A DNA stretch of 64,000 nucleotides, from positions 116,547 to 180,546 of the forward strand of contig DJVP01000012.1 of assembly GCA_002441245.1 (NCBI GenBank), in the 5' to 3' direction. The notes below the pieces were generated by a model. That model did not search any database and was not told the origin of the DNA. It was given only the letters and a program-made list of their open reading frames with translations. How positions within the stretch are numbered: the stretch's first letter is position 1; every line of letters begins with the position of its first letter. Below are positions 22,742 through 38,824 of the stretch, one piece after another. The position numbers and the translations under genes are program-made. The stretch is from Candidatus Omnitrophica bacterium UBA6253. GTDB lineage: Bacteria; Omnitrophota; Gorgyraeia; Gygaellales; Profunditerraquicolaceae.

Positions 22742-22743
22742 GA

Positions 22744-23712
22744 TTAAACTAATCCCGCTTTAAGCAGGTCCTGTACATCCAGCAAGCCCACCGGCCGCAT
22801 AAATTTATCCACAACAGGAACTTCATCTATTTTCTTGGCCTGCAATATACGCATTGCCTCTGCAGCCAGCATATCCTTATTTACTACTGTAGGATTCCTA
22901 GTCATTACCTCTTTGATCGCTCGCATCGCCAGATTTTTATCCGTTTCAAGATGGCGGCGCAGGTCTCCATCAGTAAAAATACCTTTTAGCTTACCCTGTT
23001 TATCTACAACTGTAGCTGAACCTGCCCTTGCCCGGGTAATCGCGCATAAGACCTGCGATACCTTCTTGTCTTCATCTACTACGGCATTGGACTGCGCGCG
23101 GCGCATAATATCCTCAACCCTCAAAAGCAGTCTCCTGCCTAAAGCTCCTCCCGGATGGAAAAAAGCAAAATCTTTTTCTTTAAAACCCTTTCTCTCCAAT
23201 AAACACACAGCCAGGGCATCCGCCATTGCAAGAGTCGCGGTGGTTGAAGCCGTAGGAGCCAGGCCCAATGGGCAAGCCTCTTTTTTAACTGAGACATCTA
23301 AAACCACATCGCTGTATTTAGCAAGCACGGATTTTAAGTTCCCAGTAAGCGATATAATCGGAGAACCTATTTTTTTAAGTATAGGCAGAAGCTGTTTCAT
23401 CTCCTCGGTAGAGCCGCTGTTAGAAAGAATAACTATGATATCATCCGCAGTTACTTTACCCAAATCACCGTGAATCGCCTCCGCGGTATGCAGAAATAAA
23501 CTAGGGGTACCGGTAGAAGCAAGGGTCGCGGAAAGTTTTTGCGCGATAATACCGGTCTTGCCCATACCACTGACTACAACCCTGCCCTTATTCTTAAGGA
23601 TTAATTCAACTGCCTTAACAAATCCTTTATCCAGCCGGCTTTTTAACAATTTTACGGCCGCGGCTTCGATATCTAAAACCTCTTTTGCCCGCTTAATAAC
23701 ATTTATCTTCAT
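22744..23712 (-). CDS. kdsD: Arabinose-5-phosphate isomerase (SIS + tandem CBS)
   Basis: SIS motifs (VVVSGMGKTG), C-terminal CBS pair. Confidence 0.85.
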   Translation of the reverse strand: MKINVIKRAKEVLDIEAAAVKLLKSRLDKGFVKAVELILKNKGRVVVSGMGKTGIIAQKLSATLASTGTPSLFLHTAEAIHGDLGKVTADDIIVILSNSGSTEEMKQLLPILKKIGSPIISLTGNLKSVLAKYSDVVLDVSVKKEACPLGLAPTASTTATLAMADALAVCLLERKGFKEKDFAFFHPGGALGRRLLLRVEDIMRRAQSNAVVDEDKKVSQVLCAITRARAGSATVVDKQGKLKGIFTDGDLRRHLETDKNLAMRAIKEVMTRNPTVVNKDMLAAEAMRILQAKKIDEVPVVDKFMRPVGLLDVQDLLKAGLV

Positions 23713-24521
23713 AGTGCACGCTCAATCTTTTTGACTTGTTTTAACAAAATCTCCAATTCTTTAAAATTAATCATATTTGCCCCATCGCAAGGTGCTATCT
23801 TAGGATCAATATGCACCTCTAAAAATAAACCATCGCAGCCAAAAGCTACGGCTGCCCTGGAAAGCCCGGAGACAAATTCACTTTGGCCTCCGGAACAAGC
23901 GCCTTTTCCTCCGGGGAGCTGGACACTGTGCGTGGCGTCATAAATTACCGGATAACCAAACCCGCGCATAATCGCAAGGGCCCGGTAATCCGTAACCAGG
24001 TTATTATAACCAAAACTTGCCCCTCTTTCCGTAAGTAAAATATTTTTATTCCCGGCGGATTCAACTTTCTTGATTATCGGCAAGATATCCCAAGGAGCAA
24101 GGAACTGCCCCTTCTTGATATTCACTGTTTTGCCGGTCTTTGCCGCAGCCAACAGAATATCTGTCTGACGGCAGAGAAAAGCCGGAATCTGAATAATATC
24201 CAAGACCTTGGCTGCCTCAGCCATATCTTTTGCGCAATGCACATCGCTAAGGACAGGAACCTTAAGCTGCTGTTTTACCTTCTTTAAAATAGCCAGCCCC
24301 TTGCTTAATCCCGGGCCGCGGTAAGAATCCACGGAAAGGCGGTTGGCTTTATCAAAGCTGGATTTGAATATAAAGGGCACTTTACATGATGAGGCGATGG
24401 ATTTAATCCGCCTGGCAGCTTCAAGACAAGAGCTTTCCGACTCAATAACACAGGGCCCGGCAATAAGCACGAGCGGAAATTTATCCCCAAATTTTATATT
24501 TCCTACATTAACCTGGCGCAT
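23709..24521 (-). CDS. kdsA: 2-dehydro-3-deoxyphosphooctonate aldolase (Kdo8P synthase)
   Basis: LVLIAGPCVIES N-terminus and DAHP/Kdo8P synthase fold. Confidence 0.9.
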   Translation of the reverse strand: MRQVNVGNIKFGDKFPLVLIAGPCVIESESSCLEAARRIKSIASSCKVPFIFKSSFDKANRLSVDSYRGPGLSKGLAILKKVKQQLKVPVLSDVHCAKDMAEAAKVLDIIQIPAFLCRQTDILLAAAKTGKTVNIKKGQFLAPWDILPIIKKVESAGNKNILLTERGASFGYNNLVTDYRALAIMRGFGYPVIYDATHSVQLPGGKGACSGGQSEFVSGLSRAAVAFGCDGLFLEVHIDPKIAPCDGANMINFKELEILLKQVKKIERAL

Positions 24522-25262
24522 TTAATTTATCCCCTTTTGTAATAAAACCTTGAGCCTCTCTAGATCTTCGGGAGTATCCACGCTTATAGTATCAAATTTA
24601 GTTTCGATCACTTTAATTTTAAACCCCTCGGCTAAAACGCGCAATTGTTCCAATTTCTCCGTCCTCTCAAGATTAGAAACAGGGAGGTTCTTATAAGTAA
24701 AAAGAAAATCTTTTGTATAACCATAAAGGCCGATATGCTTATAATAACTTGCCTCTTTGATTTCGGCGTTAGGCGCTAAGTAGGGAATAGGCGCGCGCGA
24801 AAAATACAAAGCTAGGTTATTCTTCCCCACCACTACCTTTACTACGTGCGGATCAGCAATCTGCTCGGGATCTTCAATCTTTTTCATGATTGTCGCCATA
24901 CTAAGAGAGCTATCTTCTAACAAAGCACGCGCGACGTTATCAATCATCATCGGATGAACTAAAGGTTCGTCACCCTGGATATTGATAACAATCTTCACAT
25001 CCAAAGGATTGACCACCTCGCTAATCCTATCAGTACCACAAGTATGCTCTTTAGAGGTCATTACTGTTTTGGCTCCAAATTCAGTTGCGACCTTCTGGAT
25101 TATTTTATCGTCACAAGCAATAACCAAATCATCGAGTATGCGGCTTGCTTTGGCCCTTTCCCAAACATGCTGCAACATAGGCTTGCCCATAATATCCGCC
25201 AGGACCTTGCCCTTAAACCTGGTAGATAAATACCTGGCAGGTATAACTCCAATTACATCCAT
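24522..25262 (-). CDS. kdsB: 3-deoxy-manno-octulosonate cytidylyltransferase
   Basis: GVIPARYLSTRFKGK N-terminus. Confidence 0.9.
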   Translation of the reverse strand: MDVIGVIPARYLSTRFKGKVLADIMGKPMLQHVWERAKASRILDDLVIACDDKIIQKVATEFGAKTVMTSKEHTCGTDRISEVVNPLDVKIVINIQGDEPLVHPMMIDNVARALLEDSSLSMATIMKKIEDPEQIADPHVVKVVVGKNNLALYFSRAPIPYLAPNAEIKEASYYKHIGLYGYTKDFLFTYKNLPVSNLERTEKLEQLRVLAEGFKIKVIETKFDTISVDTPEDLERLKVLLQKGIN

Positions 25263-26278
25263 TATTTAATCCTTCCTAAAAGTTCTCGGGAATTTGTTAC
25301 CGCTGTCCCCAGCTTGCCTACTACAATACCGGCGGCAAAATTAGCAATATACGCTGCTTCGAGTTTTGAAGCACCTGCGCAAAGAGCCAAGGTAAAACTG
25401 CTGATTACCGTGTCCCCTGCTCCGGATACATCAAAAACCTCCTGGGCTACGGTAGGAATGCGTTTATTCTTGCCTTTTTCAAAAAGCCACATTCCACCCT
25501 CGCCAAGTGTAATTAAAAGGCTCTCTAACTGCAAATACTCCAATATCTTCTCTCCTGCATTCTTAATGTCGTTATCCGTAAACAGAGTTTCCTTGTAAAT
25601 TTTAAACAAGTTTCCCCTATCATTCATTTTAAGATACCTGATGGCGTTCTGGGCTTCTTTTCGATTAGGAGTAATACAAGTGGCATGCTTATAGCAGTCG
25701 AAGTTATTCTCCTTAGGGTCAACAGTTACTATCTTTTTAAAATCTTTAGCGGTTTTAATAATATTCCTAGTCAATTCACGATCAAGCAGCCCTTTTCCAT
25801 AGTCCTCAATAACAATAGCGTCAAAATTCTTTATATTAGTGTCGAGAAATATTGTAAGCTTATCTTTTATAGACTTCGAAATATCATGTACATCTTCCCA
25901 ATCAACCCTTACCACCTGCTGGTGCCCTGCGATAATCCTTGTCTTAAGGGTTGTTTTCCTGCCCTTTTCAAAAAATACCCCCTTAGTATCAATGCCCAGT
26001 TTCTTGGCCTCGGACTGAAACATTTCTGTCGCCGGATCCTTGCTATCGCCCAATATCCCGCACAGACTTACCCTTGCGCCTAAGGCACTGATATTATTGG
26101 CAACATTAGCCGCGCCTCCTGGAACATAATTTCTTCTGTTTGCGTAAACCACGGGAACAGGAGCTTCAGGAGAAATCCTCTCGACATTACCCCAGATATA
26201 CTGGTCAAGAATCAGGTCGCCTACGACCAATACCCTTGCTTTATTAAGTTTCCCGACTACTTTTCTTAAGTTCTTCAT
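25262..26278 (-). CDS. hldE: D-beta-D-heptose 7-phosphate kinase (HldE/RfaE domain I only)
   Basis: PfkB ribokinase fold with VLVVGDLILDQY...PGGAANVA and C-terminal GAGDT motifs. No adenylyltransferase domain fused. Confidence 0.75.
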   Translation of the reverse strand: MKNLRKVVGKLNKARVLVVGDLILDQYIWGNVERISPEAPVPVVYANRRNYVPGGAANVANNISALGARVSLCGILGDSKDPATEMFQSEAKKLGIDTKGVFFEKGRKTTLKTRIIAGHQQVVRVDWEDVHDISKSIKDKLTIFLDTNIKNFDAIVIEDYGKGLLDRELTRNIIKTAKDFKKIVTVDPKENNFDCYKHATCITPNRKEAQNAIRYLKMNDRGNLFKIYKETLFTDNDIKNAGEKILEYLQLESLLITLGEGGMWLFEKGKNKRIPTVAQEVFDVSGAGDTVISSFTLALCAGASKLEAAYIANFAAGIVVGKLGTAVTNSRELLGRIK

Positions 26279-27207
26279 AGCTTTTCAATTACCGCCTGCG
26301 CTAAAAGCGGAAGCATTATTTCATGGTGGCCGATAATATAATACCCCTGCCCGCCTGAATTCGTCGGACGAATCACCACATTCTGCGCCGGACGGTACTG
26401 ATAAATCATATCAAAGTTAGCGGTAGTAAAATCCTTGACCTTATGCCCAAGGTTTCGCGCAAGATTAAGCGCCTTTAAAAATACCTCAGGCAAAAGCACA
26501 GCTGAGCCAAAATTTAAAACTACACCGCCCTGATTCAATAAGCAGATATTTTTAACAAGGGTATGGAAATCACGTAATGAGCCTTCGGCGGTCAACCCGG
26601 CATTGAACGAAGGATGCTGATGTATTATATCCGTACCGATGCCTACAAAAACGCATACCGGTACATTATATTTATGGGCATTATAAAGCAGGCTTAAATT
26701 TTTATTCGGTAATTTCTCATCGGAAATCATTTTACCCACCGCGTTTCCTAAACCTAAGCCCTCGCCCACTCCGTCCTTAACTGCCCGATTAATAAAATCC
26801 GCAGTTTCCTTGCCCATGCCGAAACTGCCATTTTTAAGGTTTTCGGCAACATCCTCGGAGGTCTTGCCCTGGAAAGCAATCTCAAAATCATGAATAATCC
26901 CGGCGCCATTAAGGCAAACACAACTAATTACTTTTTTCTTAATCAGTTCAATTAATATTGGATTAAGCCCGCATTTTATTACATGCGCGCCTGCCATAAA
27001 AATTACCGCTTTTTTCTTCCTGCTGGCCAAGGCTATATGCGAAGAAACCGCGCGTAAATCTTTAACCTTTAAAATATCCGGCAAAGAGCTCAGGAAGCTG
27101 TTAAAACTTTTAAGCTTAGCCGGAGCAAGCGCAAAATCCCCTTTACCTACCTTGCTAAAACGGGTTTTAATTGAGTATCTTTTTACTTTTTTCCAGTTAA
27201 TCGTCAT
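26275..27207 (-). CDS. Deoxyhypusine synthase-like protein (candidate homospermidine synthase-type)
   Basis: By-eye similarity to DHS blocks (NGAGIIHDFEI vs TAGGVEEDLIK, LLNQGGVV vs ILGGGVV, PLL near the C-terminus). Not confirmed. Confidence 0.4.
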   Translation of the reverse strand: MTINWKKVKRYSIKTRFSKVGKGDFALAPAKLKSFNSFLSSLPDILKVKDLRAVSSHIALASRKKKAVIFMAGAHVIKCGLNPILIELIKKKVISCVCLNGAGIIHDFEIAFQGKTSEDVAENLKNGSFGMGKETADFINRAVKDGVGEGLGLGNAVGKMISDEKLPNKNLSLLYNAHKYNVPVCVFVGIGTDIIHQHPSFNAGLTAEGSLRDFHTLVKNICLLNQGGVVLNFGSAVLLPEVFLKALNLARNLGHKVKDFTTANFDMIYQYRPAQNVVIRPTNSGGQGYYIIGHHEIMLPLLAQAVIEKL

Positions 27208-27375: not shown

Positions 27376-27567
27376 TCATCCTTCTTTGCCACTGCCGCAC
27401 TTATTTAATACCCACATCATAGGACACCATCCGGTAAACGCCGATTGGAATAAGTTTAAACCGACAAACGCAGTAAACCAGAGCCAATTATGATTAACGT
27501 AATGAGCCAAAAAAAGGCTGACCAGAATAAAAAAACCTGCTATGCCGCGTAATAACCTGTCTATCAT
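27376..27567 (-). CDS. Small inner-membrane protein (DUF2892/YgaP-like, GWCP motif)
   Basis: Two TM helices and a GWCPMMW motif. 16 bp downstream of the OMP gene in the same operon. Confidence 0.5.
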
Positions 27568-27582
27568 ACACGCCTCCTTTTC

Positions 27583-28869
27583 TTAAAAACTATAGCGCAG
27601 CCGCGCGTAAATATTCTTGTTCTTCCTCATCTGACCGAAATCTGTATAATCTTCCGCCCCCCAGGGAATGTTTAATCCGCTTGTAAACTTCCAGTGGTCG
27701 GTCAAATCATACTCCACAGAAAACCGCAGGTAACCGTCATTATTAGAAGGAGAATAGAAGTTAAACAAAGACACCCTTACCGTCTGGTTTTTAAAAAGTT
27801 TGGTTAGGCGCTGAGTAGTAATATGTTTACATTCATCGTAAACAACATCCTGACTGAGCAGCGAACGTTTATAGGCAGCGTAATCGAGCATCTGCTCATA
27901 ATAATACTGGAAAGCGACTTTCAAATCATTACCCAAATCCTTCTCATATCCAGCCATAAGTCTTACGGAAGAATTCTCGATAAGCCGATTATTGCCTTTA
28001 GGATCCTCGGGCGAATGCAGATAGGCGCCTTCAATATTCCCGATACCCCCCAACAACTCCCCCCTAAGGCTTGAACCGTAAACATCCTGGCGTTCGTAAT
28101 AAAGCTGCCTGGCTGCTTCATTTTTATAGCTACGGGATATATTATCAAATCCCCTGAATAAATAGATTGCCGCTTCGGTGCTGCCGAAATTACGATAGAA
28201 TCGCCCGGCATATTCAAAATTTTTTGCCTGCTGCCCAGGCTCAATCAGGTCCCGGTCAGAATCAGTGCCGGCGATACCCCCCTGAAAACTATCAAAGAAT
28301 GAAAGCCTGTCTCCCTCAGGCATACTGTTAGGCGTAAAATGCGGTATAACAATAAAATCAAAATTAAATAACTCCGGATACAGAGAAATCTTGAGCGCAT
28401 CTGAAGGTTTTTTTAAATATTCATCATCACGTCCTACATAAAAAGACACATAGTCCTTAGGAAAGACATCGTTTATAAACAGATAGTCTCCGGTACCCCA
28501 GGTAAGAACCTGGCGGCCAACTTTTACGTCGATTAATTGAGTAGGCGTAAAAGAAAGGTTTGCCTCACGCAACTCAAAATCTGTTTTCCCGCCGAAATAC
28601 TCGTCAAGCGTAAAGTCGCCCTTAAAACGGAATACCCCTTGAAAACGCGATAATATGTCTTCCCCCTCAAAGTTATACTGATTTTTTAACTGCAGGCGTT
28701 CTTCCGCCATATTGTAATCGCTGTGCTTGGTAGGATCACCCTTGCTGATTACCCCACCAAAAGCACCTTCAGCAAAACCATGCCATCCGGATAAACCAGC
28801 AAAAACTGGCTTCTGCCAGGCAAAAAGTAATAAAATAACCAAGAATATGCCGGATTTCTTGATTACCAT
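27583..28869 (-). CDS. Outer-membrane beta-barrel protein (DUF1302-like?)
   Basis: Signal peptide, alternating amphipathic strands, C-terminal ...RLRYSF aromatic terminus. Translationally coupled to the upstream LolA-like gene. Confidence 0.55.
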   Translation of the reverse strand: MVIKKSGIFLVILLLFAWQKPVFAGLSGWHGFAEGAFGGVISKGDPTKHSDYNMAEERLQLKNQYNFEGEDILSRFQGVFRFKGDFTLDEYFGGKTDFELREANLSFTPTQLIDVKVGRQVLTWGTGDYLFINDVFPKDYVSFYVGRDDEYLKKPSDALKISLYPELFNFDFIVIPHFTPNSMPEGDRLSFFDSFQGGIAGTDSDRDLIEPGQQAKNFEYAGRFYRNFGSTEAAIYLFRGFDNISRSYKNEAARQLYYERQDVYGSSLRGELLGGIGNIEGAYLHSPEDPKGNNRLIENSSVRLMAGYEKDLGNDLKVAFQYYYEQMLDYAAYKRSLLSQDVVYDECKHITTQRLTKLFKNQTVRVSLFNFYSPSNNDGYLRFSVEYDLTDHWKFTSGLNIPWGAEDYTDFGQMRKNKNIYARLRYSF

Positions 28870-28870
28870 A

Positions 28871-29659
28871 CTAACCCTTTATCCACTGCATGGGAGGATT
28901 ACGTAAATACCTCTCAGTAAATATGCTATCATTAATGCCAATGCCATAAGAAATATCCGTAAACTCCGCCGTAGTGGAAGAGCCGGAATTTAAATCCTGA
29001 GCAATCATTTTTACAATGGTAGGATACCCTTGGATCTCTTTTATTTCCGCTGCCTCCACTATACGGTAGAGTTTCCCCTCTTTGTCATAATATTCAGCCT
29101 TTAGCGGGATAAAATTACTCTTATCCACTTGTACTTGATAATAGGAAAATTCGACCTGGTCGGCATCTTTAGGCGTATTCTTGATCATATAACTATCGCC
29201 CTCGCTCGATAAAAGTTCATGGTTATCCAGGTTTACGCTGCGGCCCGAAACATCTTCATATAGAAAATTCGTCCCGGCAAAACTGGAGCGTTTATCAGAA
29301 GAGGCGACACGGCGCACAAGGTCAAGAGCCGGAAGATAAAGCCATCGGTCATCGTCTTTGCTCAGGTGCTTCCAGACAATATAGGCCATGCCCTTAACAT
29401 CGCTGGGCTTATCAAAATAAACGTAATATTTTTGATCTCCGTTATCCGATATATTAAAACGCAATATCGTCATTTGGCGCTCGCGCCTGCGGCCCTGGGA
29501 GTCGGTTATGACCATCTTTGCCTGGGAACGTCCGTCCTTATCCTGATAATACCCCATATGGCTTGCGCGGCCGGCAATATCATCGGCACTCATTTGCGCA
29601 TATACAGAACCGATGCCCATGAGAAATAAAAATAAGAATATTGAGATATTTTTTTTCAC
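28871..29659 (-). CDS. LolA-like periplasmic lipoprotein-sorting-type protein (DUF1329-like)
   Basis: Signal peptide, about 260 aa. Its coupled position after an MMPL/RND exporter matches the known exporter / LolA-like / OM barrel trio. Confidence 0.5.
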   Translation of the reverse strand: MKKNISIFLFLFLMGIGSVYAQMSADDIAGRASHMGYYQDKDGRSQAKMVITDSQGRRRERQMTILRFNISDNGDQKYYVYFDKPSDVKGMAYIVWKHLSKDDDRWLYLPALDLVRRVASSDKRSSFAGTNFLYEDVSGRSVNLDNHELLSSEGDSYMIKNTPKDADQVEFSYYQVQVDKSNFIPLKAEYYDKEGKLYRIVEAAEIKEIQGYPTIVKMIAQDLNSGSSTTAEFTDISYGIGINDSIFTERYLRNPPMQWIKG

Positions 29660-32187
29660 TTTACTCCTCCTTTATCGCTTTTAGTAAAAAAACATTGCCT
29701 TAACCGGGAAACAAAAAAACACAATGCAGATAACAGGCCTACGCTACCTACTGCTATCACTGTCGCGATATTCCAAGGCGTTGCGGTATAAGCTATAAGC
29801 ACATAAGCAACGCCTATGGCAATAACCAAAGACATCAAAATACATTGTGGGCAGGAACGTAAGAACCTGTTTGTAGGCTCATAGAAAATTACTCCCGGAT
29901 GCATGGAGACTATTGCCGGCAGAATAATCAACGTACCTACGCTGGCGAATAACATTATCGCGAACATAAATAAACCAACTGTATTATAAGGCACGAGCGG
30001 AGAAATAAAAAGCGGCAGGAATCCGATAGACACAACCAGGGCATTACGCAGTATTGCCCTGTACGGAGACAAGAACATTTCTTCAGAGGTATCTTTCCAG
30101 TTCCCCTTAACCGCGTATATGGTTTTAGCGCGCTCCACGAAATGAATGGAGAAATCAATCGCAAGCCCCAAGGTAAGAGCTGAAAGTACCGCTACCGGCA
30201 TATCATATTCCTTCCCTGTAAACCCCAGAGAACCGTATATAAAAAGCACGGTAACGATCAAAGGCACCATTGAGACAAACGCGGCAACCACCGAACGCAA
30301 AAGTATAATCATCATAAGAAGCACAATGATAAAACTACCGATAAAATTCCACAACATGCCCATGACCATTTTATCCTGCCAGACCATGTTGATATATGTA
30401 AGACCGGACCAATTATATGAAACTTGATAAGGAGGCGGATTATCTTTTATGAACTTTTCCGTATCACGCTTGACTTGCGCCATCACCTGATTATCACCGC
30501 TTTTTAGCTGTAACCAGAGATTAGCCTTTGAATAATCCGGGGTTACAAAATGAAAAAGGTCATCCGGCTTATGTGAATTTTCGAAGGACAGAAGACATTG
30601 CGCTACCGCCGCCTTGGTCACCGGGATAGTATAATAAATTTTATTTCCTCCCATAAGTTCGTAATAAACTTTCATAACTACGTCCGCCACCGAAGTAGAT
30701 TTACCCACCTGATTCTCTTTGTAAAGATAATCTTGCAGTTTTTGTATGTAAACAAGCATTGCCGGCTCTTTAAAAACCTCCGCATCCTTATCCTTGGCTG
30801 CGAAAATAAAATACACGCTGTAGGTTCCGCCGAAATGTTTATTCAAAACAGTATCCGCCTGGCGGATGGGATGGCGATTAGCAAACCACTTTGTGGGGTT
30901 ATCGTTAATACGTATCCTGGTTATACCGTAGATAGACAACGCAACAACAACAAGAGTTGCCATCAAAAATACCGGCCAGCGCCGTACCGTCAGGCGGCCC
31001 AAAATCACCAGAAGTTTGGAAAAACCAGTTTCCTTTAATTCTTCTTGAGTGAGGCCAAAACCTTTAAGCTTATCCTCCTTTAACAACGCCACATAAGCGG
31101 GGATAAAAAGAACCGTAGTAAACCAAGCTATGCCCACACCCACAGCTACAAAAATACCGAATATTTGAATAGGCGGTATAGGAGCAAAAGACAACGAAAA
31201 GAAACCGGCTATAGTAGTAATAGAAGTAAACAGGTTCGGGATAAAGAGTGTCTTTAAAACATGGGCCACCGTCTTATTCTTATCATGAGTCTTTTTATAT
31301 TCTTCGAAGAAATCGCTTAAAATATGAATGGAATCCAATACGCAAATGGGCAGCAAAAATATCGGGATCATTGAACTCATTATATGTATAGGAAACCCCA
31401 AACCAACCATCAGCCCCATGGTCAATAGAACCACATCTACTGCCATTAAAATAGGTATTAATACTAAAACAATATTCCTGAAAAACCAGAACATAAGCAG
31501 AAAAATCACCAGGATAGCTAATGGGGCACAAATCCCCATCTGAACAAACATCTCTTTACCGAAAGCATCTTCCGCAAGAGGCAACCCGGCAAGATAATAC
31601 TGTTCCTGCCCTTGATGAGATTTCAGGATATCCTGTATGGCACGGGAGATTTTATAACTAAGGTTTTTCTCTTTTATGGGGACATAAATGCACAACGCCC
31701 TGGCATCCTGGGAAATAAGAGTATTATAGAACAACGGGTTGGCCAGCGCCCTTATCTTGATGCGCAAGGCATCTTCAGGCGTATAAGGCGGTTTATCCAT
31801 TAACCACCTAAAAACCACCTCTCCGGGGCCACCCTGGCGTATATCATCTTTGTTGCTTAAGCTCATCAATTCATATGTTACAACCCCGTCAATTTTCTTA
31901 ATCGCCTGCGTAATATCATAAACCTTTTCCAGTGTCCCGGGGTTAAAAACACCATCCTTATCTTGTTCATTCACTACACCCAACACGATATAATCATTGA
32001 GCGAAAATTCCTTTTTTACCTCTTTATGGAATAACCTGACAAATTCCTTCTCGGAAAGCATATTCTCCGGATCAGTGTCTATCTTTATTTTTAAAAACTG
32101 CAGGCATGAAGCAATGGTAAGGAATATGGTTATACCGAATATGACCCTGGGCCTGCGCAAGGCGAAATTAACCATCTTTTCAAACAT
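29656..32187 (-). CDS. MMPL/RND-superfamily exporter (HpnN/MmpL-like, 12 TM with two periplasmic domains)
   Basis: 843 aa, two 6-TM bundles each followed by a large soluble loop. Gly-rich TM4/TM10-like segments typical of RND/MMPL. Confidence 0.7.
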   Translation of the reverse strand: MFEKMVNFALRRPRVIFGITIFLTIASCLQFLKIKIDTDPENMLSEKEFVRLFHKEVKKEFSLNDYIVLGVVNEQDKDGVFNPGTLEKVYDITQAIKKIDGVVTYELMSLSNKDDIRQGGPGEVVFRWLMDKPPYTPEDALRIKIRALANPLFYNTLISQDARALCIYVPIKEKNLSYKISRAIQDILKSHQGQEQYYLAGLPLAEDAFGKEMFVQMGICAPLAILVIFLLMFWFFRNIVLVLIPILMAVDVVLLTMGLMVGLGFPIHIMSSMIPIFLLPICVLDSIHILSDFFEEYKKTHDKNKTVAHVLKTLFIPNLFTSITTIAGFFSLSFAPIPPIQIFGIFVAVGVGIAWFTTVLFIPAYVALLKEDKLKGFGLTQEELKETGFSKLLVILGRLTVRRWPVFLMATLVVVALSIYGITRIRINDNPTKWFANRHPIRQADTVLNKHFGGTYSVYFIFAAKDKDAEVFKEPAMLVYIQKLQDYLYKENQVGKSTSVADVVMKVYYELMGGNKIYYTIPVTKAAVAQCLLSFENSHKPDDLFHFVTPDYSKANLWLQLKSGDNQVMAQVKRDTEKFIKDNPPPYQVSYNWSGLTYINMVWQDKMVMGMLWNFIGSFIIVLLMMIILLRSVVAAFVSMVPLIVTVLFIYGSLGFTGKEYDMPVAVLSALTLGLAIDFSIHFVERAKTIYAVKGNWKDTSEEMFLSPYRAILRNALVVSIGFLPLFISPLVPYNTVGLFMFAIMLFASVGTLIILPAIVSMHPGVIFYEPTNRFLRSCPQCILMSLVIAIGVAYVLIAYTATPWNIATVIAVGSVGLLSALCFFVSRLRQCFFTKSDKGGVK

Positions 32188-32189
32188 CT

Positions 32190-32465
32190 TTAACCCCTCC
32201 CTTTATATAAAGCCCCTAATAAAAACCTGACCCTTTTATCCAGGATGCGGTAGCAGGATTTTGTCCCTTCTTTACGGATTCCAAGTATACCGCGTGACTT
32301 TAAGATACCCAGATGCTGGGAAATCGTTGACTGCGGAAGACCGAGTGCCTTGACCATCATCTGGACATTACATTCATTTTTCGTTAACAGCCCTTTCACG
32401 ATCTTAAGGCGTACCGGATGCCCCAGGGCCTTCAAAAAATCGCTCTCCTCATTATAATTCAACAT
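32190..32465 (-). CDS. ArsR/SmtB-family transcriptional repressor
   Basis: 91 aa winged helix with LGHPVRLKIV...STISQHLGILK. Perfect GGAGG RBS 5 nt upstream. Stop overlaps the exporter start. Confidence 0.8.
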   Translation of the reverse strand: MLNYNEESDFLKALGHPVRLKIVKGLLTKNECNVQMMVKALGLPQSTISQHLGILKSRGILGIRKEGTKSCYRILDKRVRFLLGALYKGRG

Positions 32466-32484
32466 GCATCCTCCTTAAACTATT

Positions 32485-32532
32485 ATTTATCTATTAATCG
32501 TGATAATACGATAAATAGATAAATTTGTCAAG
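32485..32532 (-). promoter_or_regulatory. Sigma70-like promoter (TTGACA-17-TATTAT on the minus strand) overlapped by a 40-bp imperfect palindrome, the likely ArsR operator
   Basis: Minus-strand TTGACA is the complement of 32527-32532 and TATTAT of 32503-32508. Inverted repeat ATTTATCTATT-ATCGT...ACGAT-AAATAGATAAAT spans 32485-32524. Confidence 0.6.
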
Positions 32533-32565: not shown

Positions 32566-34587
32566 CTAACCGCCTTTGAGTATTGATTCAGCTACAGAAA
32601 GCACATCCTCGATACTGATTGCCTTAAGACAGGCAAATTCTTTTTCACAATTATGCGCCAGGCATTGGATACAGCCTACGTCTTTATGCAGATATTTATC
32701 CCTTTTTCCTAAAGGGCCCCAGCGCCGCGGGCTAAGCCCGGGTTGATTGCGGCCAAAGATGGAAATTACGGGTATTCCTAAGCTTGAGGCGATATGCACC
32801 GGACCAGAATCATTAGAGATAAACAAAGAACACCTTTTAAGGATGCTGGCAAGATGACTCAGCGAAGTCTTGCCGGACAGATTTAACGCCTTATCTCCTA
32901 ATTTTTGAGCTACCATATTTGCCAATGGAATATCCCTGGCCCCGGCTACAATCAGAATCTTAAAATTATGCCGTTTGGCTAAAATTTCGGCAACCTGAGC
33001 GAACCTATTTATCGGCCAAATCTTTGAAGGACAACTTGCCCCAGGGTTAATCGCTAATAATTTATCTGCTTCTTCGATGCCATTGCCAGCAAACAAGTCA
33101 CTAACCCATTGCTCTGATTCCGGCTTTATGGGCATGAATAAATCCCGGGCATTGCCGCTTATACCTAAATCGCTAAGTAAATCCAGGTTATATTCCGCTT
33201 CATGCCTCAAGCCTTCTTGCTTTTTATGGGGTTTCTTGAGATTATTCAAGAAACCGAATTTACGGTTATACCCCAGGCGGCAAGGAATGCCAGCCAGGAA
33301 AATTATCAGATGCATACGATTGGTAGGATGCAGGATTATTGCCAAATCAAATCTTTTCTTTTTTAGCCTGCCGGCAAATCTTAGCGAACGAATCCAGCTT
33401 CTATGCTTAATCTCTTTATCATAAATTATAGTTTCATCCAGATATGGATTTGCCTCCACAATATCCCTGGCATAAGGAGCAACCATCATAGAAATATAAG
33501 CCTGTGGGTACTTTTGCCTTAAGGCCTTAATTACCGGAGTAGACAAAAGCACATCTCCTATACGGTCAGTACGCACGATTAAAATGCGCCGGTAAATCTT
33601 TTCTTTGGCATCAGGGGTATTTTCTTTATCTTTGCCTTTAAGTAAATAGTTTACCTGCTTAAATACATCATCAACCTTCAGACAAGACAAGCATTCAAGG
33701 CTAGCAAAACGGCAGGAGGCCTTTTCGCACGGCCGGCAAAATATATCTTTTTTAACAATTATTCTCTTCTGCGACCACGGCCCGTATTTATTTTCATCCG
33801 TAGGGCCGAATATTGAAACAACCGGAATATCCAGGTAACTAGCCAAATGCATTGCCGCGCTATCGTTGGTGATTAAAAGCCTGGCTTTTCTTAGTAAAGC
33901 TGCCAATTGATTAATTGAGGTTTTGGCGCAAAGATTAATGATTCTTTCCGGACAGGACTGGTGGACAAATGAACATACGGGTTCGTCGGTTTTATCCCCT
34001 ACCAAAACTACATCCCAGCCTTCTTTAATAAGTAGGCTGCATAGATGGCTGAAATTCTCTTTATCCCAACGCTTAATCTGACTCCTTGCTCCGGGAGCAA
34101 CTACTACTATTTTAGCGCTGTCTTTTATGTTTTGTCCTTTTAAAATATCCTCGATATATTTTACATCTTCGGCCGCGATAACCAGTGATTGCTGTTTCTT
34201 GCTCCTGAAAGGATACCCGGCAAAGCAGGCCCAAAATAAATGCCTGTCCTTCATATGTTTAAACTTTCCCGGTATAAAACGTAATGGGGAACTTCTTTTT
34301 TTAGCAGGCAGGAAAGCCCCGAACAAGCTATTGCGTAAGTCAACAATTATATCGAATTTCTCTTTGGACAGAAAAAGAAATAATTTTATCTTATCTATTA
34401 ACTTGGCATGTTTATTAAAAACAATTACATTTTCTATCGCCTGGTTGCTAATGAATATCTCTTTGGGCCTCTCAGGAACCAGGCAACTGATCTTGGCATT
34501 AGGGTATTCATTGCACAATGCGTCTAAAACCGGCAAGGTTAAAATGCAATCGCCTATATTGCTTAAAGTAATAAAAAGTATCTTCAT
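32566..34587 (-). CDS. Tandem-fused glycosyltransferase family 9 (two heptosyltransferase-like domains)
   Basis: Two repeats of the GT9 N-terminal signature (ILFITLSNIGDCILTLPVLDAL and RILIVRTDRIGDVLLSTPVIKAL), each with a C-terminal sugar-nucleotide domain. 673 aa. Confidence 0.75.
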   Translation of the reverse strand: MKILFITLSNIGDCILTLPVLDALCNEYPNAKISCLVPERPKEIFISNQAIENVIVFNKHAKLIDKIKLFLFLSKEKFDIIVDLRNSLFGAFLPAKKRSSPLRFIPGKFKHMKDRHLFWACFAGYPFRSKKQQSLVIAAEDVKYIEDILKGQNIKDSAKIVVVAPGARSQIKRWDKENFSHLCSLLIKEGWDVVLVGDKTDEPVCSFVHQSCPERIINLCAKTSINQLAALLRKARLLITNDSAAMHLASYLDIPVVSIFGPTDENKYGPWSQKRIIVKKDIFCRPCEKASCRFASLECLSCLKVDDVFKQVNYLLKGKDKENTPDAKEKIYRRILIVRTDRIGDVLLSTPVIKALRQKYPQAYISMMVAPYARDIVEANPYLDETIIYDKEIKHRSWIRSLRFAGRLKKKRFDLAIILHPTNRMHLIIFLAGIPCRLGYNRKFGFLNNLKKPHKKQEGLRHEAEYNLDLLSDLGISGNARDLFMPIKPESEQWVSDLFAGNGIEEADKLLAINPGASCPSKIWPINRFAQVAEILAKRHNFKILIVAGARDIPLANMVAQKLGDKALNLSGKTSLSHLASILKRCSLFISNDSGPVHIASSLGIPVISIFGRNQPGLSPRRWGPLGKRDKYLHKDVGCIQCLAHNCEKEFACLKAISIEDVLSVAESILKGG

Positions 34588-35618
34588 AATTTCCTAACTT
34601 TTCTGGCCTCTGTCAAGACATCATCAGGAGTAACCGCTTTCATACAACGGTTATCCTGGCAATTAACTCTATAGCAAGGAATCGCGCAACCAACATCTTT
34701 CTGCAAGATAACCACATTAGTATCCGGATAAGGGCCGGTTATTTCTCTGGCCGTCGGTCCAAAAATCCCTATTATCTTCTTAGCCCCAACGGCATTAGCT
34801 ATATGCATTGGCCCGGTATCCGCGGTAACAAAAAGGCTTGCCCGCTTAGCTAGGGCGGCCAAATGCTTTATATTAAAAACCCCGCAGCCAATCAAGGGCT
34901 TCTCTTTCATTTTTTCTTTTATCTGATTAGCCAGCGGCAGGTCAGATATACTACCGGTTATAATTACCCTTGCCTTTACTTCATCGATCAAACTATCAGC
35001 TAGCTTAGCCCAGTAATCCTTCGGCCAACGTTTAGGCATCCAATTTCCTCCGGGATTAAGCGCAACTAAAAAATCATCCTTACCCACGCCATTTCTTTTC
35101 AGGAAATCATATACATATTCCTCTTCTTCAGGAGTAAAAATAAAATCCAAGTACCTGTCTTCCACGCGTAAACCCGCTTTTTCAACAACATTCAGATAAA
35201 AATCTATACGGTGCAAAGAATCCCTTTTCGGCATAGAGATCTTTTGAGTCAGCAAGAAAGAACGTTTTTTAGTATTATGGCCTATCCTCTGCTGTATCCC
35301 GGCCAACCGACAAATTAACGCGCGGCTAAATGAACGATGCAACAGGAACGCAGTATCAAATTTCTTGCTTTTAAGCAGGCTGATAAAATTTAATTTTGCC
35401 AGCATACCCTTATGCCTGTCCTTTTCATCAAAAATAATTACTTCATCTAAATACGGATTTCCTTTTAATATCGGATAACACCGACTGGGGATTGCACAGG
35501 CAATATAGCTATCGGGATAATTCCTGCGTACATTCCTGATAGTGGCCGTAGAAAACAAAACATCCCCCAGCCAATTTACATTAAAGATAAGGATACGTTT
35601 TGGCTTAAGTTTACTCAT
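34584..35618 (-). CDS. Glycosyltransferase family 9 (ADP-heptose:LPS heptosyltransferase, WaaF/WaaC-like)
   Basis: RILIFNVNWLGDVLFSTATIRNV signature, 344 aa. Confidence 0.8.
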   Translation of the reverse strand: MSKLKPKRILIFNVNWLGDVLFSTATIRNVRRNYPDSYIACAIPSRCYPILKGNPYLDEVIIFDEKDRHKGMLAKLNFISLLKSKKFDTAFLLHRSFSRALICRLAGIQQRIGHNTKKRSFLLTQKISMPKRDSLHRIDFYLNVVEKAGLRVEDRYLDFIFTPEEEEYVYDFLKRNGVGKDDFLVALNPGGNWMPKRWPKDYWAKLADSLIDEVKARVIITGSISDLPLANQIKEKMKEKPLIGCGVFNIKHLAALAKRASLFVTADTGPMHIANAVGAKKIIGIFGPTAREITGPYPDTNVVILQKDVGCAIPCYRVNCQDNRCMKAVTPDDVLTEARKVRKL

Positions 35619-36734
35619 TTACGCTGGCTCTCCCGGCCGGATTCTTTTCTCTAAACATTCTTTATAAACCTTTTCTGTCGCATCAACCATTTTCTCTTTA
35701 GAAAAATTATCCATAATGAATTTACGGGCGCTAGTTGCCAAATTATCGCGCATTTGCTTATCAGTCAAAAGGCGCATAATCGCCCCCGCTAAAGATACCG
35801 GGTCAGCAGGCTCAACTAATAATCCGTTTTGCCCGTCTTTAATCAGGGTTTTTATCCCCCCCACTGCCGAACCTACAACTGCCAACCCCTGCGCCATTGC
35901 TTCCATAAGCGCTAAGCCTAAACCCTCCTGCAATGAAGGCATAACAAAGATATCCAGTGCCGCAAGCACATTTTTAGTTCCTTCAGCTTGCGGTAAGAAT
36001 AAAACACTATTTTTGATAGCTAGATCATCCGCTTCTTCAACCAGCACATCCTTCATTTTACCTTCGCCGACAACAACCAATTTCACTGAAGGAAAGTTCT
36101 TGATAATAATCTGCATGGCCTTAAAAAGATAAATATGCCCTTTCACGTCAGATAAACGGGCAACAATCCCCACTAAAGGGGCATCTTCTATGCCTAAAGA
36201 TTCCCTGAAACTTTGCCTGCCTGAAAAATCACCGAAACTTTGCAGATCTATACCGTTATTTATTACTTTAATTTTGTTTTCATCCAGATTAAAATCAAGA
36301 ATCAGATGTTCCTTTACCTGCTGGCTTATAGCAATAATAGCATTATCCCAACAAGGAAAAAACAAGCGGGATAGCTTTGGTTTAAAAAAACCATGGCAGG
36401 TAAATATATGCGGTTTACGGCAATAACGACTCAATAAACTCCCCAAAACCTGAGTAGTTCGGCTGTTTGAATGTATCAAATCAATATTAAGCCGCTTGAT
36501 TTCTTTTCTGAGCCTTAAAAAACTGATAATGATCTTCGGGCTGACCTCTTTTTTCGTGCATAAAGGAACCCGTATGTTCTTTATGCCTGCTGCCGTGAAC
36601 TTTCCTAAGAGTCCGCCTCCTCCGGAAGCCAGGTAAACACTATGGCCATTTTCTTTAAGTCCGGAGGCTAGAGTAAACAGATAGCTGGAAATTCCCCCTA
36701 CATTAAGATGGTTAGCTATAAACAATATATTCAT
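35619..36734 (-). CDS. Glycosyltransferase family 4 (GT-B, group 1)
   Basis: MNILFIANHLNVGGISSY N-terminus and C-terminal E-x7-E-like GT4 region. Confidence 0.8.
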   Translation of the reverse strand: MNILFIANHLNVGGISSYLFTLASGLKENGHSVYLASGGGGLLGKFTAAGIKNIRVPLCTKKEVSPKIIISFLRLRKEIKRLNIDLIHSNSRTTQVLGSLLSRYCRKPHIFTCHGFFKPKLSRLFFPCWDNAIIAISQQVKEHLILDFNLDENKIKVINNGIDLQSFGDFSGRQSFRESLGIEDAPLVGIVARLSDVKGHIYLFKAMQIIIKNFPSVKLVVVGEGKMKDVLVEEADDLAIKNSVLFLPQAEGTKNVLAALDIFVMPSLQEGLGLALMEAMAQGLAVVGSAVGGIKTLIKDGQNGLLVEPADPVSLAGAIMRLLTDKQMRDNLATSARKFIMDNFSKEKMVDATEKVYKECLEKRIRPGEPA

Positions 36735-38824
36735 TATAATAATTTATCTATTGCCGCAAGCACTTCCTCAGGAGTAATCTGCCTCATACAGTGCTTGGTT
36801 CGACATTTAGTTTTATAACAAGGCTGGCAATCCAGATTTTTATTAATCACAATGCAGTTCTTTCCTGGCGGAAGATGGCGGCGCGCATCAGTAGGCCCAA
36901 AGAGCGCGATAAAAGGAGTCCTTACCGCGGATGCGATATGCAAAGGCGAAGAATCTGCTGAAATAAACACATTGCATTTCTTGATCAGGGCAGCCAACTC
37001 ATTTACACTGGTTTTACCGCAGGCATTAATAATTTTGGTACCCTTAAGTGAATTTACGAGCATGTCAGCATAGACTAAATCCTGGGCAGTACCGGTAATC
37101 ACTACGCGTATATCGCGCAACCCCAAATCTTCACAAAGACGCATCAGGTATTGCTGCGGCCAAAGTTTGGTACTCCATCTCCTGGAAGCGCTAATATTGA
37201 TCCCCACTATTTTCTGAGCCTCGCTCAGCCATTGGGCGTTTAAAAGCTCATCCACGCGCTTTATATCTTCAGGAGACGGCCAAAGCTCAAGCGAATTATT
37301 CAAAAGGTCAATACCGAGCATTTTTAATATGCGAAACTGGTGCGTTACCGGGTCGATAAGCGGTTTTCCATCTTTAATGCGGTGCTGAAGCAAAAAAGAA
37401 AGCTTTTTGTTATCATAACCGTAGCAATTAACGCAGCCGCTCAGGTAAGAAAGTATATGGCTGGACCGGCTGTTCTGCAGGTCTATAACAATATCAAAAT
37501 TCTTTTTCCTTAAGACGCCTCCTATGCCCAATAACCCCTTTAGCCCCTTATCATTATTTTTCAAATCACACACCAATAGCTCATCTATATAAGGGCTTCT
37601 TAGCAATACATCTTTTGATTCCTCTCCGGTCAAAAAGCTTATCTTATAATTTGCTTGGGAAAATTTCTCCCAAACCGCCCTTAATGCAGCCGTGGAAAGG
37701 ATTATATCCCCTAGAGAGCTGAGCTTAATTATCAGAATCTTAAAATTACTCAAGGCATCACGGTAAACATCCAAGGTATTCTTAACCATCAACTCCACCG
37801 TATATTTTTCTTTAATCTTAACGTAGGCATTCTCTGCCAAATTCTGTGCTAATTGCGTATTTTCATAAATACGCAGTATAGCATCGGCCATGCTTTTATG
37901 ATCTGCTGGAGGAACTAATAGACCGTTTTTGCCATCTTCAATGATATCAATTACCCCGCCTACCTTAGTAGCTACCACCGGTACGCCGGAGGCTTGGGCC
38001 TCAACCACTACCCGGCCAAATGCCTCATGTGTTGTCGTAGCCAAAACCACCAGGTCCAGATGCGCCAGTATCCCAGGGATATCACGCTGTGTTCCTAAGA
38101 ATTCTGTGCAATGCCATAGACCAAGCCGTCGTACTAACACCTGTACTTCCTCCTTATACGCCTCCTTTGATGCCGGGGCATCCCCCACTATCCATATTTT
38201 TAACCGTGGTACAGTCCTTGAGATACGCGCCATAGCCTTAATAAAATGCAGGTGGCCTTTTAGAGGAGTGATCCTGCCGATAATCCCTACGTTAAACTCC
38301 TCTTTTCTCTTTGACTTAGGGTCAAGGTATTTAAACCTTTCCATATCCACGCTGCGCGGAACAAGCCTGATACGCTCATGAGGCACTGCAAAGTCTTCAA
38401 TCATATGCCGGGCAATCACGTTGCTTAAAACAATCACTCTCTTAGCCCAACCCATTACTAAACTAAAAAGATGCTTCTTATAGTAGCCATGACAAGTAGT
38501 TATAAATACGGCCTTGGTCCTACGGCAGGCAAAATAAGCAATCCATGCCGGCACGCGCGAACGGGCATGAACGATATCAATCTCCTCCTGTTTGATTATC
38601 CCTACTAGAATAGGGATTAATTTATATATAGAAAAAATTGATTTTTTATGTACTGCTAATGTGTAATGTTTGGCGCCGCATGCTTCAAGCTCTCCGACCA
38701 GGGCTCCGCCGGCAGAAACCACTACTACTTTATGCCCCAGGCGCACCAGATACTTGGACAAATCCAAGGTACCGGTCTCAACCCCGCCTACATTAAGTTC
38801 AGGCAATATTTGCAGTATCTTCAT
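36734..38824 (-). CDS. Fusion protein: GT4 glycosyltransferase (N-terminal) + GT9 heptosyltransferase (C-terminal)
   Basis: N-terminus ILQILPELNVGGVE (GT4), then from about residue 360 FKILIIKLSSLGDIILSTAALRAV (GT9). 696 aa. Confidence 0.75.
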   Translation of the reverse strand: MKILQILPELNVGGVETGTLDLSKYLVRLGHKVVVVSAGGALVGELEACGAKHYTLAVHKKSIFSIYKLIPILVGIIKQEEIDIVHARSRVPAWIAYFACRRTKAVFITTCHGYYKKHLFSLVMGWAKRVIVLSNVIARHMIEDFAVPHERIRLVPRSVDMERFKYLDPKSKRKEEFNVGIIGRITPLKGHLHFIKAMARISRTVPRLKIWIVGDAPASKEAYKEEVQVLVRRLGLWHCTEFLGTQRDIPGILAHLDLVVLATTTHEAFGRVVVEAQASGVPVVATKVGGVIDIIEDGKNGLLVPPADHKSMADAILRIYENTQLAQNLAENAYVKIKEKYTVELMVKNTLDVYRDALSNFKILIIKLSSLGDIILSTAALRAVWEKFSQANYKISFLTGEESKDVLLRSPYIDELLVCDLKNNDKGLKGLLGIGGVLRKKNFDIVIDLQNSRSSHILSYLSGCVNCYGYDNKKLSFLLQHRIKDGKPLIDPVTHQFRILKMLGIDLLNNSLELWPSPEDIKRVDELLNAQWLSEAQKIVGINISASRRWSTKLWPQQYLMRLCEDLGLRDIRVVITGTAQDLVYADMLVNSLKGTKIINACGKTSVNELAALIKKCNVFISADSSPLHIASAVRTPFIALFGPTDARRHLPPGKNCIVINKNLDCQPCYKTKCRTKHCMRQITPEEVLAAIDKLL

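Follow-up and report, generated by a model that had tools for sequence, protein, structure and literature searches.

A putative pump-carrier-barrel transport operon beginning with an arsR gene in a Candidatus Omnitrophica bacterium

Introduction

What does a bacterium move through its envelope, in which direction and under which conditions, when a single operon encodes a regulator, an inner-membrane pump, a periplasmic carrier, an outer-membrane barrel and a small membrane protein? The question is raised by five genes of Candidatus Omnitrophica bacterium UBA6253 (Omnitrophota; assembly GCA_002441245.1), an uncultured organism represented by a metagenome-assembled genome, located at positions 27376-32532 of a stretch of 64,000 nucleotides from contig DJVP01000012.1 (positions 116,547 to 180,546 of the forward strand), which is hereafter called the window. 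An earlier note, drawn up from the letters of the window, had read them as a self-regulated operon and a candidate pathway for lipid export. The analysis reported here indicates that the operon very probably encodes a transport system composed of an RND pump, a LolA-superfamily carrier and a barrel; that this system serves the inducible export of a hydrophobic or amphiphilic small molecule across the envelope, outward direction and inducibility included, is the reading that we favour with fair, though clearly lesser, confidence.

Results

Organization of the operon

The open reading frames (ORFs) of the region read as five co-directional genes on the minus strand. The features that matter for the argument are the following (aa, amino acids; TM, transmembrane):

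32503..32531, minus strand: sigma-70-type promoter, TTGACA-17 nt-TATTAT, 11 of 12 positions, best match in 6 kb
32485..32524, no strand assigned: candidate ArsR operator across the -10 box, an inverted repeat of 17 nt (94% complementary) with a spacer of 6 nt
32190..32465, minus strand: arsR, 91 aa, first gene of the operon
29656..32187, minus strand: RND pump gene, 843 aa
29656..29886, minus strand: C-terminal extension of the pump (aa ~768-843), with CxxC, two extra predicted TM helices and C-x8-C
28871..29659, minus strand: LolA-like carrier gene, 262 aa
27583..28869, minus strand: barrel gene, 428 aa
27376..27567, minus strand: DUF2892 gene, 63 aa

The five genes of the earlier note are therefore present where it had placed them, and their family assignments hold; its description of the junctions, instead, needed amending. 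Indeed, the pump and carrier genes do share a 4-nt overlap (GTGA), and carrier and barrel genes are separated by 1 nt, as described; however, arsR and the pump gene, also said to overlap by 4 nt, are parted by 2 nt (TAA-AG-ATG), and the gap between the barrel and DUF2892 genes measures 15 nt rather than 16, with a GGAGG ribosome-binding site lying within it ahead of the DUF2892 gene. The -35 box of the best promoter match falls at the upper bound of the region (32532). At the other end no convincing terminator was seen after the DUF2892 gene, and the next gene begins 168 nt downstream with a promoter-like site of its own. The plus strand across the region holds short ORFs only, the longest of 146 aa and none supported. 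Since Rfam and tRNA scans of the window returned no matches, the short leader holds no riboswitch.

The pump, the carrier and the barrel

The pump matches the MMPL family (PF03176; 105 bits against a cutoff of 20.5, E = 4e-30), and its best NCBIfam match is HAE3 (TIGR00921; 244 bits, E = 2e-72, under the cutoff of 352); PF12349 and PF02460 are also matched, with similarity to the sterol-sensing domain and to Patched. It is an inner-membrane protein of the RND superfamily, of the MMPL/HAE3 (COG1033) type. Hydropathy gives 12 core TM helices and two large periplasmic loops, so that the 12 helices counted previously are confirmed for the core, while two further ones are predicted at the C-terminus. 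In a comparison of 67 pump sequences, which takes in the Ilyobacter, Prevotella and Acinetobacter homologs discussed below, Asp285 and His288 of predicted TM4 recur in 62 and 66 sequences, respectively, and Asp678, His682 and Arg686 of predicted TM10 in 66-67; this conservation fits an active proton relay.

The carrier matches PF17131 (LolA_like, named TP_0789 in newer Pfam releases; 194 bits, E = 2e-57), and DUF1329 (PF07044) also exceeds its cutoff (36 bits against 23), over residues 71-143 only. Sequence searches of the PDB returned LolA3-PG (9TP6; E = 1.7e-32, 30% identity), 4Z48 and 3BK5, and the AlphaFold2 (AF2) model of the carrier (pLDDT 79) aligns with 9TP6 at Foldseek TM-scores of 0.71-0.77, the superposition on these solved relatives giving about 0.7 overall. 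Because its N-terminus is a type-I signal peptide with no lipobox cysteine, the protein is expected to be soluble in the periplasm. The carrier is a secreted LolA-superfamily protein of the LolA3/TP_0789-like clade; a literature search on TP_0789 found nothing useful.

The fold of the carrier and its NCBI name might suggest an alternative, Lol-like route for the sorting of lipoproteins. We consider this very improbable, and a canonical LolA lipoprotein carrier was rejected, given that canonical LolA structures align poorly with the model (TM-scores of only 0.3-0.45) and that the partner gene encodes an RND pump, not the LolCDE ABC transporter. Moreover, LolA3 of Porphyromonas gingivalis binds LolB very weakly and is devoid of the LolA Arg and LolB Leu features (PMC13103446), and the deletion of lolA3 in F. 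johnsoniae leaves gliding motility and amylase secretion unchanged (PMC11885536).

About 25 residues, among them DDRW, LPALDLVRR and SSFAG..F.YED.SGR, are invariant in the most conserved stretch of the carrier, aa 100-140, which is also the part that AF2 models with the lowest confidence (pLDDT 51-59). Being conserved yet poorly modelled is what would be expected of a loop that becomes ordered on a partner, and this stretch may thus represent a docking loop.

As for the barrel, it has a signal peptide, a C-terminal Phe and, according to the structure search, an 18-stranded fold. Its score against DUF1302 (PF06980) is 17.3 bits (E = 0.0026), below the cutoff of 23.2. Five of 120 close barrel homologs carry PF06980, a Prevotella homolog joins the barrel to DUF1302, and the top structural neighbours, i.e., Occ/OprD channels and AlgE, are the same as those published for DUF1302; a direct PDB sequence search with the barrel gave noise only. 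The profile searches and structure checks that the earlier note had proposed are therefore in agreement with its MMPL, LolA-like and DUF2892 families and with its barrel fold, whereas DUF1302 stayed below threshold. The architecture that it had drawn, with an inner-membrane RND pump, a periplasmic LolA-superfamily carrier and an outer-membrane barrel, is backed by profile searches, structure searches and gene order alike.

Some distant homologs of the barrel are 560-750 aa long (e.g., P0254, P0258, P0260, P0271 and P0277), with N-terminal extensions of 170-350 aa. The idea that these long forms are LolA-barrel fusions was discarded, their extensions being without a Pfam match.

Conservation of the gene order in Omnitrophota

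When one genome per species was scanned, relatives of the barrel turned up in 568 genomes, and the best 80 loci, almost all of them labelled as Omnitrophota or Planctomycetes-like bins and including Ca. Velamenicoccus archaeovorus, were examined. The order RND pump, LolA-like carrier, barrel is kept in 62 of the 63 evaluable loci; this arrangement is far beyond chance and provides the conserved co-occurrence on which the earlier note had made its proposal depend.

The two outer genes behave differently. Of 61 evaluable loci, 38 have an arsR gene immediately ahead of the trio, and of 76 evaluable loci, 56 have a DUF2892 gene right after the barrel gene, so that both are optional add-ons to the trio, and the earlier view of the five genes as one unit has to be relaxed. 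The closest relative, L094, a metagenome contig with 84% barrel identity, harbors, of the five, pump, carrier and barrel genes only; the gaps there, 71 and 35 nt, leave no room for arsR or for the DUF2892 gene, which implies that both were gained or lost recently. In loci devoid of arsR, genes for a C_GCAxxG_C_C putative redox protein (14 loci) and for a DUF134 putative DNA-binding protein (10 loci) are often found directly upstream of the pump gene; loci concerned include L014, L017, L018, L020, L026 and L041, and the C_GCAxxG_C_C gene of L062 and L064 lies ahead of arsR.

A BNR/Ycf48-like gene (AmeC, COG4447) is absent both from the operon and from the recurrent neighbours in the 80 loci, no catabolic genes recur near the cassette in the same loci, and the operon contains no gene for a membrane-fusion adaptor or a TolC-family channel.

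Regulation of the operon

The product of the first gene belongs to the ArsR/SmtB winged-helix family (NF033788, 76.3 bits against a cutoff of 55; the profile searches matched PF01022, HTH_5, as well). Exact copies of the half-site of the candidate operator, ATCTATTWATCG, occur only twice in the window, facing each other at the promoter; a wider operator regulon in the window was sought and rejected, the other copies being two hits with one mismatch each, within chance expectation. The TTGACA / TAtTAT promoter layout recurs upstream of orthologous (window-type) arsR genes, and a related palindrome, ATCGTAaTATTACGAT, with outer AATCG/CGATT half-sites, covers the -10 box in type-A arsR loci, the clearest cases being L004, L006, L007 and L011 and the others weaker. 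That promoter and palindrome are kept together in related loci supports autorepression, and the self-regulation claimed by the earlier note is thus plausible: ArsR might repress its own operon by binding the palindrome over the -10 box.

A further issue concerns the signal. The cassette-associated ArsR proteins of Omnitrophota fall into three subtypes, each with conserved cysteines of its own; in all window-type orthologs these are Cys32 (in 'ECNV') and Cys71 (in 'KSCY'). In As(III)-sensing ArsR proteins of the R773 type, the DNA-recognition region opens with a C-V-C(-x-x-C) motif. The window ArsR has a single cysteine (C32, 'ECNV') at that site, and a sensor of this type was discarded. A persulfide sensor of the BigR/SqrR type was discarded as well: in the alignment the window ArsR has no cysteine either at helix alpha2 ('LILC') or at the C-terminus of alpha5, and the BigR model gives 52.6 bits against a cutoff of 155.

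The DUF2892 protein and the tail of the pump

The 63-aa product of the last gene matches YgaP-like_TM/DUF2892 (PF11127; 56.7 bits against a cutoff of 25.3, E = 2.7e-15), has two TM helices and is highly conserved, its W-C-P motif being kept in orthologs. Association of such proteins with RND pumps is not confined to Omnitrophota. Among 13 non-redundant plasmid or megaplasmid loci sampled from Proteobacteria, Bacteroidota and Actinomycetota (among L084-L093 and L099-L102), 11 have an RND/MMPL gene within 3 kb of the DUF2892 homolog, and the pumps fall in different RND branches. An ArsR or CsoR-like regulator adjoins in 8 of these loci, and genes related to thiols or sulfur, for an MBL-fold hydrolase, YeeE/YedE, a sulfurtransferase, TrxC or DsbA, are often nearby. 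In the alignment, the proteobacterial ArsR proteins linked to DUF2892 do carry the BigR/SqrR cysteine pair, unlike that of the window. No description of the DUF2892-RND linkage was found in the literature searched; a DUF2892 gene is known to be induced about 10-fold in Azospira during sulfide oxidation (PMC5358917).

Beyond TM12 the pump has a tail of about 75 aa. A CxxC motif is present in 47 and a C-x8-C motif in 46 of 65 pump C-termini, the one of the window included, and the tail, which has no match in Pfam, probably forms a cysteine cluster facing the cytoplasm. Its topology and C-x8-C spacing resemble those of the DUF2892 hairpin; however, a fused hairpin was rejected, given the lack of a Pfam match and an hhalign probability of 0.9%.

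Taken together, the DUF2892 linkage, the associated ArsR proteins, the sulfur genes and the tail of the pump suggest a portable module for thiol, sulfur or metal stress that is attached to RND pumps. A reading built on this, to which we give a low probability, is that DUF2892 proteins represent widespread, undescribed small accessory or sensor subunits of pumps belonging to three branches, i.e., AcrB-like, MMPL and HAE3. In its more specific version, held to be just as improbable, ArsR, DUF2892 and the cysteine-rich tail form a thiol-based sensing or gating module, and that the operon would be an exporter, responsive to reactive sulfur (or to metalloids or redox conditions), of hydrophobic sulfur species or of a thiol-reactive lipid, such as zero-valent sulfur or polysulfide held in the LolA-like groove.

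Genomic context

The operon interrupts a large supercluster for lipopolysaccharide (LPS) on the same strand (20610-27207 and 32566-41785). Its upstream flank includes lpxK, an lpxL-like/ELM1 fusion and genes for GT4 and GT9 glycosyltransferases; its downstream flank includes a deoxyhypusine-synthase-like gene, a gene for an hldE-like PfkB kinase, kdsB, kdsA, kdsD, kdsC, an lptC/lptA fusion and lptB. Several genes of these flanks have unusual structures:

38821-40770: lipid A acyltransferase fused to an ELM1-like domain
36734-38824: GT4-GT9 fusion
32566-34587: double-length GT9 protein, 673 aa
21313-22209: LptC-LptA fusion

This neighbourhood had led the earlier note to propose a glycolipid, an LPS variant or a hopanoid-like lipid as the cargo, and it is the starting point of a first alternative, according to which the operon exports an endogenous, LPS-linked envelope lipid to the outer membrane as a housekeeping function. 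In L094 the trio occupies the same place in the LPS cluster and, having no repressor of its own, is probably co-transcribed with the LPS genes; the similarity of the pump to the sterol-sensing domain and the occurrence of barrel relatives in 568 species genomes of the collection also fit this idea, as does the description of Omnitrophota as mostly ultra-small cells (PMC10066038). Nevertheless, we judge it rather unlikely. LPS synteny failed as a clue to the cargo: when the 19 flanking genes were compared with the 80 other Omnitrophota loci, none recurred specifically beside the cassette, only generic similarities to an ABC ATPase, GT4 and an acyltransferase being found, and relatives at 81% and 77% identity, which have arsR with or without DUF2892, show unrelated flanks (SerRS in one case, Feo/DtxR/Fur/ferritin in the other). 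Being shared with the closest relative only, the LPS flank is lineage-specific and weak evidence for the cargo, so that the cargo proposed from it is weakly founded. In addition, LPS itself has a separate Lpt pathway (LptC/A, LptB) encoded, and a repressor-controlled operon suits a conditional function better than a constitutive one. Finally, the analogy with the hopanoid transporter HpnN drawn by the earlier note does not extend to membership, since the pump falls far short of the curated models (NF052374 equivalog, 25.8 bits, i.e., 26, against a cutoff of 1100; TIGR03480, 80.8 against 751.85).

Some further observations concern the surroundings. The deoxyhypusine-synthase-like gene (26275-27207; 310 aa, a weak match of 29 bits), which lies between the operon and the hldE-like kinase gene, keeps its position in L094 (10543-11490). 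In L097 (6943-14391), the relative at 77% identity, genes of iron homeostasis lie downstream of the cassette (DtxR-type repressor, FeoA, FeoA, FeoB, OprB, Fur and rubrerythrin/ferritin); this flank recalls the induction of the Porphyromonas/Prevotella homologs by iron limitation. At the scale of the whole window, ORFs of at least 150 aa are almost all on the minus strand, and the GC skew is negative in every 2-kb interval over the 64 kb, a pattern consistent with one replichore arm and a strong gene-strand bias.

Homologous cassettes in other phyla

The trio is not restricted to Omnitrophota. In the fusobacterium Ilyobacter polytropus, genes for the LolA-like protein (49% identity), the barrel (40% identity) and the RND pump are adjacent on pILYOP01; there (L081, 2772-9854) selD, yedF (a sulfurtransferase-like gene of selenium metabolism) and a DUF3343 gene immediately precede the trio, which might be a hint of sulfur or selenium metabolism or a coincidence. 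Prevotella nigrescens has two ABC exporters followed by MMPL, LolA-like and a protein annotated as DUF1302 family. In P. gingivalis the matching operon, PG1175-81, is upregulated 13- to 136-fold when iron is limiting and shares its regulation with hmu genes (PMC10434189, PMC11018363).

A particularly informative case is that of Acinetobacter baumannii (L083, 2126-7047), where a 1216-aa protein combines SRPBCC, MMPL and LolA_like domains, and a gene for a 424-aa homolog of the barrel follows with a 4-nt overlap (tblastn E-values of 1e-13 for the carrier and 2e-9 for the barrel). Judged by the sizes of the genes and by what surrounds them, i.e., a nonribosomal peptide synthetase (NRPS), a 621-aa epimerase/hydrolase and a phosphopantetheinyl transferase, this pair matches A1S_0116-0117 of the A1S_0112-0119 operon, which makes Ac-505, a lipopeptide found in the culture supernatant (PMC5376624); the same paper calls the two products only an RND transporter and a porin-related hypothetical protein. 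The fusion of pump and LolA_like domain argues for a direct coupling of pump and carrier, and is the strongest argument for it, and the biosynthetic context of Ac-505 argues for export.

Clusters of a longer form combine DUF1302, DUF1329, BNR and RND genes. The deletion of ameABCD in Castellaniella defragrans lowers monoterpene tolerance and raises the accumulation of Nile red (PMC6394551). DUF1302, DUF1329, BNR and COG1033-RND genes are cofit in several Proteobacteria (clusters in Shewanella, Kangiella and Pseudomonas), and the export of an envelope component was proposed for them (bioRxiv 10.1101/072470). Pseudomonas putida mutants in the DUF1302, DUF1329, BNR and RND genes are unable to use Tween 20 and butyl stearate as sources of carbon (bioRxiv 10.1101/2020.07.04.188060; PMC10866462). 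Published AlphaFold-Multimer work predicts DUF1302-DUF1329 and DUF1329-RND complexes (PMC13499233, PMC10866462).

These data bring in two other explanations. According to the first, the operon would be a stress-inducible, AmeABCD-like efflux system for exogenous hydrophobic toxicants (solvents, terpenes, dyes), with no cargo made by the cell itself. Besides the ameABCD phenotype, the induction of DUF1329/DUF1302/RND clusters in hydrocarbon degraders (PMC13101534; bioRxiv 10.1101/072470) is in agreement with it, and so are the control by a repressor, typical of efflux operons, and the variable genomic context, as in accessory resistance modules. On the whole we hold this explanation to be improbable, though worth keeping in mind: the Omnitrophota cassette has no BNR/Ycf48-like component, its carrier and barrel are much shorter (262 versus 451 aa and 428 versus 605 aa, respectively), and no catabolic genes recur nearby. 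To our knowledge, moreover, sensors of the ArsR family are not known to respond to solvents.

The second explanation reverses the direction: a hydrophobic nutrient, for instance fatty esters or lipids from a host, would enter through the barrel and be carried to the inner membrane by the LolA-like protein, which would suit the predatory or parasitic lifestyle proposed for some Omnitrophota; host dependence has been proposed for some of them (PMC10066038). The failure of the P. putida mutants on Tween 20 and butyl stearate speaks for uptake, as does the finding that the closest barrel folds are the substrate-uptake channels Occ/OprD. We find it quite unlikely, however, since the proton-relay residues are intact and the Acinetobacter cassette belongs to a biosynthetic operon with a secreted product. 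Furthermore, the characterised pumps of the RND superfamily that we know of move their substrates outward on the proton gradient.

Discussion

Inducible export of a hydrophobic or amphiphilic small molecule is thus the function that we favour for this operon, and its steps might be as follows. Gene content, folds, gene order and the conserved promoter and palindrome are observed, whereas the hand-over between proteins, the direction of transport, the cargo class, the inducer and the role of DUF2892 are inferred. The proton-driven MMPL/HAE3-type pump would take up the cargo at the inner membrane by way of its sterol-sensing-like TM domain and its two periplasmic loops; the cargo would probably come from the outer leaflet or the periplasmic face. 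The pump would then pass it to the soluble LolA3/TP_0789-like carrier, whose hydrophobic groove would shield it. The carrier would dock on the 18-stranded, DUF1302-like barrel, and the cargo would enter the outer membrane or be released outside. As for regulation, the strong sigma-70 promoter would probably be blocked by ArsR bound to the palindrome over the -10 box, and the two conserved cysteines of ArsR suggest that release might occur upon a thiol-reactive signal, i.e., a metal or metalloid, an oxidant, an electrophile or reactive sulfur. The co-transcribed DUF2892 protein would most likely assist the pump as a small partner in the inner membrane, either accessory or sensory.

Several points weigh against this interpretation. 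The link of the barrel to DUF1302 is indirect, and the barrel is probably a distant relative of that family. ArsR and DUF2892 are absent from L094, so that being regulated by them is no inherent property of the trio, and the window ArsR lacks every characterised sensing motif tested. The contexts of the homologous cassettes differ widely, from a lipopeptide cluster to an iron/heme-limitation regulon (Porphyromonas, Prevotella), terpene and hydrocarbon degradation and the use of Tween 20 (P. putida), and function may therefore not transfer from one lineage to another. Lastly, the phenotype of the P. putida mutants fits uptake as well as export.

The earlier note was correct in stating that the trio recurs in genomes without an established function; nonetheless, it is less unexplored than implied, given the work on AmeABCD (PMC6394551), on the cofitness clusters (bioRxiv 10.1101/072470), on A1S_0116-0117 (PMC5376624) and on PG1178-81/LolA3 (PMC10434189, PMC13103446). 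The cassette itself is known, widespread and mechanistically uncharacterised; what is new here is its putative control by ArsR/DUF2892, the absence of a BNR protein, the short carrier and barrel and the cysteine-rich tail of the pump.

Compared side by side, the operon of Omnitrophota, LolA3 of Bacteroidota, the Acinetobacter genes A1S_0116/0117 and the AmeABCD-type clusters prove to be variants of a single machine, which allows one model for all of them, a shuttle-based route across the envelope unlike TolC-type ducts and Lpt-type bridges. The cassette spans many phyla and touches on the export of a lipopeptide involved in Acinetobacter motility and biofilms, on the response of Porphyromonas to iron/heme limitation and on the degradation of hydrocarbons and terpenes, and its homologs point to organisms that can be cultured. 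In addition, the DUF2892-RND linkage and the cysteine-rich tail suggest an unrecognised layer of regulation on RND pumps.

Comparison with known systems

Among known systems, PG1178-PG1181 of P. gingivalis and the Prevotella operons share with the window the order regulator, MMPL pump, PF17131 carrier and barrel, and LolA3-PG (9TP6) is the closest solved structure to the carrier of the window; they differ in having a TetR instead of an ArsR regulator and paired ABC exporters, and in lacking DUF2892. The Ac-505 operon of Acinetobacter likewise encodes a homologous pump, a LolA_like domain and a barrel; there, however, SRPBCC and LolA_like are fused to the pump, and the genes belong to an NRPS cluster under quorum-sensing control, whereas the operon of the window has no adjoining secondary-metabolite genes.

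The AmeABCD-type systems resemble the window in combining an HAE3/COG1033 RND pump, a LolA-superfamily protein and an outer-membrane barrel, of the DUF1302 type in those systems and probably a distant relative in the window, with neither a membrane-fusion adaptor nor TolC, and in the hydrophobic substrates implied. Beyond the BNR/Ycf48-like fourth protein and the lengths of carrier and barrel already compared, the window differs from them in having an ArsR in place of a LuxR regulator, an extra DUF2892 gene and the cysteine-rich tail of the pump.

HpnN and the mycobacterial MmpL/LppX systems are the best-understood functional analogues, as they belong to the RND superfamily (HAE3 and MMPL branches) and pass lipids outward. 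Even so, the curated models score far below their cutoffs, HpnN has no co-encoded carrier or barrel, and LppX is a lipoprotein encoded in another genomic context. Finally, AcrAB-TolC with AcrZ shares with the window RND as the source of energy, an envelope-spanning route and a small co-encoded membrane protein, and by analogy DUF2892 may play an AcrZ-like role; the operon of the window lacks adaptor and TolC-type channel alike, and its soluble shuttle and porin-like barrel stand in for the continuous duct.

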